From the IMG/VR virus record IMGVR_UViG_2713896737_000011: a stretch of 11,262 bases of DNA; one strand, given 5' to 3'. This stretch comes from a virus (taxonomy: Duplodnaviria; Heunggongvirae; Uroviricota; Caudoviricetes). Below are positions 1 through 3,000 of this stretch, in pieces. Every line of letters begins with the position of its first letter. Positions within the stretch are counted from its first letter, which is position 1. The position numbers are program-made.

Positions 1-3000
1 CTTCGCCATGTGCTTGGCGTCATAGCAGACTGGCCGGTCAACCGGGTCAGCGAACTGCTTCCGTGGCGCATAGCACTGCCAGCTGAATAACACATCCCCG
101 TCAATACGGCCCTCGCTGTACGCTTACGGCTCTCTGAAGAAGGTAATAGCAGCTTTCCCTCGCGCCATTGTTGTCGCCATTTGAACAACAGATTGGCGTT
201 AATGCCATTTTCAAGAGCAAGTTTTGAGATGGATATCCCGGGTTCACAGGAGGCAGCAACGAGCTGCTGTTTAAATTCGGGAGGATAATTAGGGCAGCCT
301 TTTCGCCTGCCGGGAGTCACATTTTTCTGCATATCTGATACTTTGGTTCCCACTACTTATTTGGTGGACACCACTTTGTCTAATTCGTCAGATTCTGACC
401 AGACGGTTCAGGATGTACGCTTACAAATTGATCATAAAACCGATCATGAAATCGATCATGACATCTCAGATGAAGAACCCTGCAATGACGCGGGTTCCGG
501 CGATGAAAAATGCGCAAAAAACTCTGAAAAAAACTGCGCAAATTCGGCAGAAACGAAACGGATTCGTGGTTCCCGACTTTTACCACCTTCAAACGCTTTT
601 TCTCAGCGAAACACCCACGCCGTAAGACACCGTGGATATGCGAAGTATCTTGAGGCAGATAACCTCATGGATGATGCGTCCGACATGGTGCTGTTTGATG
701 AACTGGTGTTCACCCGGGCCCGCGCACTTTCAGTAACTAAGGCACTTAAAGGGATGTTCGCCGACCTGGAAGAGGCAACTGACGTGGAAACCCGCGTTGC
801 TCTTTACGACAAAATACTCAAAGCTGAACAGGCCCTTGACCGGAATATTGCCCGTATCGAGTCAATTGAACGCTCATTGCTGACGCTGGACGTCCTGGCT
901 GAGACAGCACCAAAACTTCGTGCTGACCGGGAAAGAATCAACGCCGCCAGAGATAAACTCAGAGCGGAAACCGATATTCTGACCAGCCAGCGCCGGGGTG
1001 TTATTACGCCAGTCAGTGACATCGTGTCATCGCTGCATGAAATGAGTAATTCGGGGAGACTGGATGACATTCCGGAAGAATAAAACGCGATGTGATGAAC
1101 CTGCAGAAATGACTGAGACCGAACAACGTCTGTTCATTATGACAAAACTGAGCAATCCCTGGTGGCGCCTCAATCATCTCTACAAAATACAGAACGAAAA
1201 AGGTGAACTGGTCACCTTCAGAATGCGACCGGCGCAGCGCCAGTTGTTCCGGAGCATGCACAATAAAAATATTATCCTGAAAGCACGCCAGATGGGTTTT
1301 TCCACGGCCATTGATATTTATCTTCTCGACCAGGCATTATTCATTCCGCATCTCAAATGCGGGATCGTCGCTCAGGATAAACAGGCAGCCAGTGAAATTT
1401 TCCGCACAAAAATTGCTGTACCGTTTGATCATCTCCCTGACTGGCTGAGAGCCTCATTCACCATCGTTGAACGTCGTAGCGGTGCCAGCGGTGGCTATAT
1501 CCTGTTTGGTCACGGCTCGAGTATTCAGGTGGCAACCTCATTTCGCTCAGGTACGGTGCAGCGCCTGCATATCTCAGAGCACGGCAAAATTTGCGCGAAA
1601 TATCCGGCTAAGGCGAAAGAGCTGCGAACCGGTACGCTTAATGCCGTTTCTGATGAATGCATTATTTTTGATGAATCCACGGCTGAAGGCGTGGGTGGTG
1701 ATTTTTACGAGATGAGTAACCGTGCACAGGAGAGCACTGCATCAGGCTTATTGCTGACGGCACAGGATTATAAATTCCATTTTTACGCCTGGTGGCAGGA
1801 TCCTAAATACAGCGCCAGAGTGCCGGAAAGCGGGCTGAAGCTGTCACGGGAAAAAATGACGTATTTTTCTGCGGTTGAGAAGGCAATGAACATCACGCTT
1901 ACTGATGAACAGAAGCAGTGGTACATCAATAAGGAAACTGAACAGCGTGAGGAAATGAAGCAGGAGTTTCCCTCGACGCCACAGGAGGCGTTTCTGACGT
2001 CCGGACGACGTGTGTTCAGTGCCGAAAGTACGTTGCAGGCAGAATCATTCTGTTCGCCACCGCTGATTGTTTATGACATTGAACCTGTTACAGGAAGGAA
2101 GACTAAAGCACAGTCTCTGCGTGACGGGAATAAAGCCGAACAGCACCGGACGCTGATGAATTATCTGCTGGTATGGGAACTGCCGGATCCGGATGAAGAG
2201 TATGTTTGTGGGGCAGATACTGCCGAAGGGCTGGAGCACGGAGACCGCTCATCGCTGGATGTTGTCAAACGCAGTAATGGCGAGCAGGTGGCTCACTGGT
2301 TCGGGCATCTCGATGCTGAACTTTTTGCTCATCTCATTTCGCAGGTCTGTCGTATGTATAACAACGCGTTTGTGGGGCCGGAGCGTAATAATCACGGACA
2401 TGCAGTTATCCTGAAACTCCGGGAACTCTATCCGACACGTTATATCTACAACGAACAGCATCTTGACCAGGCATATGACGACGATACGCCCCGCCTTGGC
2501 TGGCTGACAACCCGTCAGAGCAAACCTGTTCTGACCGAAGGAATGAAAACGCTTCTGAATAATGGAATATCAGGGATCCGCTGGTCAGGCACATTATCGG
2601 AAATGAACACCTACGTTTATGACGCGAAAGGCTCCATGAATGCACAGGAAGGCTGCTTTGATGATCAGCTCATGAGCTACATGATTGCCCAGGAGATGCG
2701 CGCCAGAATGCCGGTGAGGGTAAAACAGAAAACGGATAAACGCAGAACCACACACAGGATGGCTCACTGATGAAAAATGAAACTAACACCATGGCGACGA
2801 AAAACGACAATGGAGCCACGCCGCGTTTTTCTCAGCGCCAGTTACAGGCGCTTTGTTCTGATATTGACAGCCAGCCTAAATGGCGTGATGCCGCAAACAA
2901 GGCCTGTGCGTATTACGATGGCGATCAGTTGCCACCGGAAGTTCTTCAGGTACTGAAAGATCGCGGTCAGCCGATGACTATCCATAACCTCATCGCGCCT

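Follow-up and report, generated by a model that had tools for sequence, protein, structure and literature searches.

A Dam-site hexamer array inside the small-terminase gene of 933W-like Shiga toxin phages is a likely recognition part of their packaging site

In phages SPP1/SF6 and P22, repeated DNA elements are thought to be contacted by a ring of N-terminal helix-turn-helix (HTH) domains, and in phage lambda gpNu1 binds three R sites in cosB, where IHF also acts. The pac site of phage P1 is 161 bp long, lies inside pacA and holds seven TGATCA/G hexamers, divided into HEX4 and HEX3; synonymous recoding of the hexamers lowers packaging 9-fold (PMC10028697). We have analysed a stretch of 11,262 nucleotides from a virus of the Caudoviricetes (IMG/VR record IMGVR_UViG_2713896737_000011), referred to below as the window, in which three GATC sites recur in a 12-bp tandem repeat. 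An earlier note on this DNA had likened the repeat to P1 pac. We found that the repeat belongs to terS, the gene for the small terminase subunit, in a copy truncated by an insertion sequence (IS). Judged from sequence comparisons, the array of which it is a part is likely, though not proven, to be the recognition part of the pac site of 933W-like Shiga toxin (Stx) phages.

The 12-bp units (AAATTGATCATA, AAACCGATCATG and AAATCGATCATG) occupy positions 425-460 of the window on the + strand. GATC is found at 430, 442 and 454, within the hexamers TGATCA (429-434), CGATCA (441-446) and CGATCA (453-458). Tandem Repeats Finder, run on the window, returned a repeat at 425-465 with a period of 12, 3.4 copies, 82% matches and no indels. 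The repeat had been described as an exact one; this holds for its period, whereas 1-3 positions vary between the units. A single GATC-N8-GATC-N8-GATC is present in the window and none in 200 shuffles, and the repeat is therefore real rather than a product of chance. Over the whole window GATC is depleted, with 33 sites vs 49.4 expected, and every one of 200 shuffles contained at least 33. Apart from the three sites of the array there is none in 1-1362, the next being at 1363, so the flanks, which the earlier note had called free of GATC for about 100 bp, are free of it well beyond that distance. The stretch without GATC on the 3' side of the array (458-1362) is about 900 bp long; GATC-free regions have been reported in prophages of Shiga toxin-producing E. 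coli (PMC6602927).

Alignment with intact relatives firmly places the repeat inside terS. The intact gene is 807 nt long in HG792102, HQ424691, LC616031 and O121 chromosomes, and is annotated as terS in the first two; position 425 of the window corresponds to the second base of its codon 50. What the window retains is the 3' part of terS (425-1083, + strand), running from codon 50 to the stop of the 268-codon gene, with neither a start codon of its own nor the HTH. This fragment is 99.9% identical to terS of O121 Stx2a phages. It is a truncated member of PHROG 370 (Sepvirinae terS): its residues 11-219 match the small-terminase profile (E 3e-96) over profile positions 74-284 only, whereas full-length relatives match positions 1-284 (E 4e-125). 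The repeat had been placed upstream of the terminase genes, as an intergenic site between the IS end and a first terminase-region gene at 667. In the relatives, the intact terS begins 148 nt upstream of the equivalent of position 425, the ATG at 667 is the internal Met131 of TerS, and the array is intragenic.

Intact Stx (Sepvirinae) phages carry four units with four GATC sites at terS nt 141-182 (L002 2482-2536), of which three survive in the window. The array lies within the 5' third of terS, as in a P1-type pac. Its four hexamers (CGATCA, TGATCA, CGATCA and CGATCA) all fit TGATC(A/G), reading as TGATCG or TGATCA on the minus strand, and each contains a GATC Dam site. Translated in frame, the intact array encodes K-IDH-E-IDH-K-TDH-E-IDH-D and the surviving part I-D-H-K-T-D-H-E-I-D-H. 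In an AlphaFold2 model of TerS built from 68 homologues, an N-terminal three-helix domain (helices 6-20, 24-31 and 35-41; pLDDT, the predicted local distance difference test, 76-88) is followed by a disordered region at 48-118 and a confident helical hairpin at 130-238. The array codes for residues 46-61 and therefore sits in the linker where protein-level constraint is least.

We compared this arrangement with the pacA gene of P1 (NC_005856). There, TGATCA is found at nt 194, 201, 213 and 228 (cluster 194-233), the annotated cleavage region at nt 276-285, and TGATCG/TGATCA at nt 324, 336 and 347 (324-352). The P1 hexamers code for I-D-H, N-D-Q and G-D-H, which is the same x-D-H/Q solution as in the Stx array. 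The proteins are also related at the profile level over the N-terminal ~100 residues of TerS. Stx TerS, a member of PHROG 370, matches PHROG 1711 (E 3e-5, residues 5-94), while PacA, a member of PHROG 1711, also matches PHROG 370 (E 1.9e-4, residues 3-104); Aeromonas-type TerS matches PHROG 1711 with an E of 2.3e-8. By BLASTP, TerS 4-90 and PacA 1-91 are 24% identical (E 0.009 for that single comparison), and the C-terminal part of TerS is unrelated to PacA. When 106 fetched loci were scanned for YGATCA-N6-YGATCA, the motif was confined to these terS arrays and P1 pac. The likeness to P1 pac proposed earlier is thus supported in part, by the fit to TGATC(A/G), by a position just after the HTH part of the recognition-subunit gene like that of HEX4, by the reciprocal profile match and by the DNA-level constraint in sister lineages described below, but it does not extend to the bipartite design, as both the second GATC cluster and the IHF consensus are absent.

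The terS DNA of relatives was gathered from IMG/VR, GTDB genomes and encoding contigs. In the Stx group (at least 92% identity) the GATC unit is present, with copy number varying from 1 to 7 in multiples of 12: one copy in P0020, two in P0016, three in the LC645410 group, four in the majority, five in L038 and P0025, and seven in P0001. No GATC array was found in the E. coli group (75-77% identity), in Citrobacter, in part of Salmonella or in Aeromonas. In these non-GATC lineages (L043-L097), terS nt 130-305 holds the palindrome TGCGCA 5-7 times, spread over as many as three reading frames (S/N/T-A-Q, V/L/M-R-K and C-A-K/N), against 0-4 occurrences in the other 3-4.5 kb of each locus. In Dickeya aquatica (L104), whose helix reads SSAKRYITIK, five TTCGCA are found at terS nt 160-215 in two reading frames, which adds a third type of hexamer to those seen at this place in the gene. 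No description of TGCGCA or TTCGCA arrays in terS was found in the literature searched.

One Salmonella lineage (P0024, P0034, P0050 and P0059) has YGATCA at terS nt 142, 154, 166, 178 and 190. The array encodes K-S-D-Q / K-S-D-H / K-N-D-H, so that the peptide differs from that of the Stx phages while the coordinates are the same. When its unit (AAAAGTGATCAA) is set beside that of group B (AAAAGTGCGCAA), the two bases at the centre are the sole difference. Conservation of the repeat in homologous phages, which had been proposed as a check, is therefore seen in the Stx group and in this one Salmonella lineage, with unit number varying, but not in the other lineages, which are without a GATC array. 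The window itself has two TGCGCA hexamers, one at 511-516 (encoding C-A) and one at 535-540 (24 bp beyond the first), which places the pair 57-81 bp downstream of the GATC array; by comparison with the relatives, the two are a residue of the family-wide TGCGCA array. We also observed that the group-B arrays (L043, L046) include a single TGATCA at terS nt 201-206, in 12-bp register among TGCGCA (..AATTGATGATCAAAAAAG..), possibly the seed of the Stx GATC array.

To put numbers on these arrays we used a codon null, in which the peptide was kept fixed and synonymous codons were redrawn 5000 times. TGCGCA was observed 5-7 times vs 0.3-0.5 expected (0/5000 redraws). For YGATCA the count was 4 vs 1.18 expected in the Stx phages (p 0.007) and 5 vs 2.16 in Salmonella (p 0.01), under a null that assumes independence, an assumption violated by units related through duplication. 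These comparisons support a DNA-level constraint on the hexamer arrays that sister lineages have in this segment.

Among relative proteins with a readable helix and linker, the recognition helix was found to vary together with the array. Helix ART[RQ]IK, a variant that the Salmonella YGATCA lineage has in common with the Stx group, goes with a D-H/Q array in 10/10 proteins, the P0002 cluster (helix ARIRIK) has a D-H array too, and helix ARR[YH] goes with A-Q/H arrays in ~80 proteins with zero discordant. The segment made up of helix and array is closest between the Stx and Salmonella lineages (79%), while its N- and C-terminal flanks follow different backgrounds, suggesting that helix and array form a cassette that has moved as a unit across two terS backgrounds.

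Taken as a packaging signal, the array, probably with the TGCGCA pair downstream of it, would form the recognition part of pac. The HTH domains of a TerS oligomer would bind the repeated hexamers, TerL would make the first cut nearby, and headful packaging would run towards terL. Since there is a Dam site in each hexamer, adenine methylation may control whether the array is bound or cut, as it does for P1 pac; a dependence of packaging on Dam is drawn here by analogy with P1.

Several observations weigh against this interpretation. All four GATC hexamers share one reading frame and have the look of slippage products, and the 1-7 units seen among near-identical genes mean that no fixed number is required; duplication also weakens the codon null, as described above. 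No second GATC cluster accompanies the array, the next GATC at 1363 being ~900 bp away, and the two-cluster layout of P1 (4 + 3) around a cleavage region is therefore not seen. A scan of 1-1261 for the IHF consensus WATCAANNNNTTR with at most one mismatch, limited to that consensus, gave no match. TerL showed no similarity to P1 PacB by BLASTP, the two sharing only the generic PHROG 2. Helix and array lie ~20 bp apart and may be inherited together through simple linkage. In P1, PacA has an RRY helix yet uses TGATCA, and the group-B RRY arrays include one TGATCA; a simple code from helix residue to hexamer was considered and rejected on account of these two cases. Neither a published pac site nor mapped virion ends of 933W-like phages were found in the literature searched. 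Finally, PhageTerm classed the 933W-like Stx2 phage Lys19259Vzw as 'Mu-like', with termini carrying host DNA (PMC7946995). This phage is a 98.5% match to window 425-1098, and host DNA at its termini would fit packaging begun in an unexcised prophage.

The main competing explanation is that the array is a neutral in-frame minisatellite, a slippage-prone 12-bp unit encoding (K/E)(I/T)DH in the disordered TerS linker. GATC would then simply follow from the coding of Asp-His (GAT-CAY) and would have no function as DNA. We regard this as possible but less probable than a packaging signal. It accounts well for a copy number that is polymorphic from 1 to 7 and always changes in multiples of 12, for hexamers that share one frame, and for a linker with predicted disorder and more variation than any other part of the family alignment; the GATC array is also missing in TerS relatives at 75% identity or less, one Salmonella lineage excepted. 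It does not explain why Salmonella has YGATCA at the same coordinates despite a changed peptide (S/N for I/T, Q for H), or why Asp is always encoded by GAT and the codon before it always ends in a pyrimidine (codon null p ~0.007-0.01). Arrays of other lineages lie at the same position independently of reading frame, and the Stx array shares position and sequence homology with the proven P1 pac element; both argue for the packaging signal.

A Dam/SeqA regulatory cluster unrelated to packaging, acting through SeqA sequestration or methylation-switched late or terminase transcription, is improbable. A group of three to four GATC sites, 12 bp apart in a GATC-poor region, would suit such a cluster, and Stx prophages do encode adenine methylases: 933W-like phages have one of the MT-A70 family, and Stx2 prophages are reported to carry the GATC-specific orphan methylase M.EcoVT2Dam (PMC6602927), which may differ from the MT-A70 gene. 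However, the cluster lies inside a coding region and was not found to overlap a promoter, operator or origin. No sigma-70-like promoter was detected in 1-1200 by a consensus scan, which atypical promoters could escape. Sister lineages have TGCGCA or TTCGCA at this place, which fits an array recognised by a protein and not a methylation switch.

An origin of the repeat as an internal or terminal part of an IS, or as a target duplication, is virtually excluded and was rejected: although the repeat adjoins an IS end at 424, ISEc8 homology stops there, and IS-free Stx phages that are 99.9% identical to the window from 425 onward carry the array plus one extra upstream unit, so the repeat is phage and not IS sequence. 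The refuting outcome that the earlier note had named, a repeat internal to an IS, is thus not what we found, and the IS end that it had suspected at 424 was confirmed. The 199 phage records with a match to window 1-1100 all come from Stx or Sepvirinae phages, each match starts exactly at 425 (199/199), and 128-424 matches ISEc8.

The flank is a composite of two ISEc8 pieces. Positions 1-126 (+ strand) are the right end of an ISEc8 (IS66-family) copy, with the last 29 transposase codons (translation LRHVLGVIADWPVNRVSELLPWRIALPAE*, stop at 88-90) and a terminal inverted repeat closing ...GTACGCTTAC at 126. Positions 127-424 (- strand) are a 298-bp left-end fragment of a second, oppositely oriented ISEc8, matching the annotation of phage 1717 (FJ188381). 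Its terminal repeat GTAAGCGTAC lies on the minus strand at 424-415, and its tnpA starts at 332 and is cut off after 69 codons (translation MQKNVTPGRRKG...). Window 1-424 is 100% identical, in a single piece, to the pO157 plasmid NZ_CP076246 (L106 3001-3424), which carries an ISEc8 family transposase annotation and shows the same composite: a complete ISEc8 ending at the equivalent of 126, then the 298-bp inverted left-end fragment. The exact IS/terS junction was absent from the 5,426 complete E. coli genomes searched.

It is firmly shown that the ISEc8 end at 424/425 removed array unit 1 together with TerS codons 1-49, which encode the HTH, so that no DNA-binding TerS can be made from this copy. 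What the window keeps of the array is a relic, of use at most in cis to a TerS supplied by another prophage. In L098 (LC727843.1, 3241-3290) terS has a three-unit array, and an IS629-type end (TGAACCGCCCCGGG...) was observed immediately behind its ...GATCATGACATC; here an IS has interrupted terS at the array on a second, independent occasion. A similar IS629 insertion was seen in about 30 LC7278xx records (Stx2a prophages).

The terL gene (1064-2770, + strand, 568 aa) overlaps the end of terS, appears intact and is annotated as terL in relatives; its product belongs to PHROG 2 and 24361, terminase large subunit, with no Pfam match at E up to 0.1. It is followed at 2770-4914 (+ strand) by a portal gene (714 aa), taken from the open reading frame list and annotated as portal in HG792102; Pfam P22_portal was found on the neighbouring gene of related loci. 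A Pfam search of TerS and TerL gave nothing significant, and Foldseek of the TerS model against the PDB returned generic coiled coils only, none with E < 0.001. In a further set of homologues (P0067-P0073, P0097) the C-terminal helical domain was shared while the N-terminal domain was unrelated (MNQSEEESLKRDYCAGV... or MDMEALKSDYCAGV...), which suggests that small terminases have exchanged their DNA-recognition modules.

A broader proposal, which we make tentatively from the comparison of relatives, is that terS of PHROG 370 carries the packaging signal as a swappable specificity cassette made up of the recognition helix and, directly behind it, its cognate TGCGCA, YGATCA or TTCGCA array. If so, 933W-like Stx phages and one Salmonella lineage would have switched from TGCGCA to a Dam-methylatable YGATCA. 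A methylation-gated, P1-like pac would then be the starting point for the packaging of Stx phages and for any lateral transduction by their prophages, and it would be disabled recurrently by IS insertion at the array (by ISEc8 here, by IS629 in ~30 records of Stx2a prophages).

The 933W-like Stx phages spread Shiga toxin genes, and a defined pac in them would predict where packaging starts and which prophage-adjacent host genes are open to lateral transduction. It would also explain the adenine methylases of Stx phages, and would give a marker of packaging-defective Stx prophages, namely an IS-disrupted terS or array as in the window. The family-wide hexamer arrays, with a co-varying recognition helix, also offer a natural system for the evolution of terminase specificity.

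Of the known systems, P1 pac shares several features with the Stx array. Both have TGATC(A/G) hexamers with a Dam site in each, both have a cluster of four in the recognition-subunit gene just past the HTH-coding part, and both encode the hexamers as x-Asp-His/Gln in genes whose products are profile-related over their N-terminal ~100 residues. They differ in that the Stx units form a strict 12-bp tandem of variable copy number, whereas the P1 spacings are 7, 12 and 15 bp, and in that two TGCGCA lie downstream of the Stx array where P1 has its second cluster of GATC hexamers. The Stx site also has no IHF consensus. TerL is unrelated to PacB, as is the C-terminal part of TerS to PacA.

The TGCGCA and TTCGCA arrays of PHROG 370 relatives (Citrobacter, Salmonella, Aeromonas, Dickeya) share gene position and A-rich spacers with the Stx array, and the group-B arrays share its 12-bp register and have one TGATCA unit. 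Unlike the Stx array, they have a central CG in place of AT and hence no Dam site, and go with helix ARR[YH] rather than ART[RQ]. SPP1/SF6 (pacL-pacC-pacR) and P22 (pac in gene 3) also have their packaging signal inside the small-terminase gene, but their sequences and proteins are unrelated to those described here and their sites are without Dam-site hexamers. Lambda cosB is similar in its short repeated sites, the winged-HTH N-terminus of its small terminase and an adjoining cutting site; it differs in cutting at cos rather than by headful, in having its sites outside coding sequence, and in unrelated sequences.

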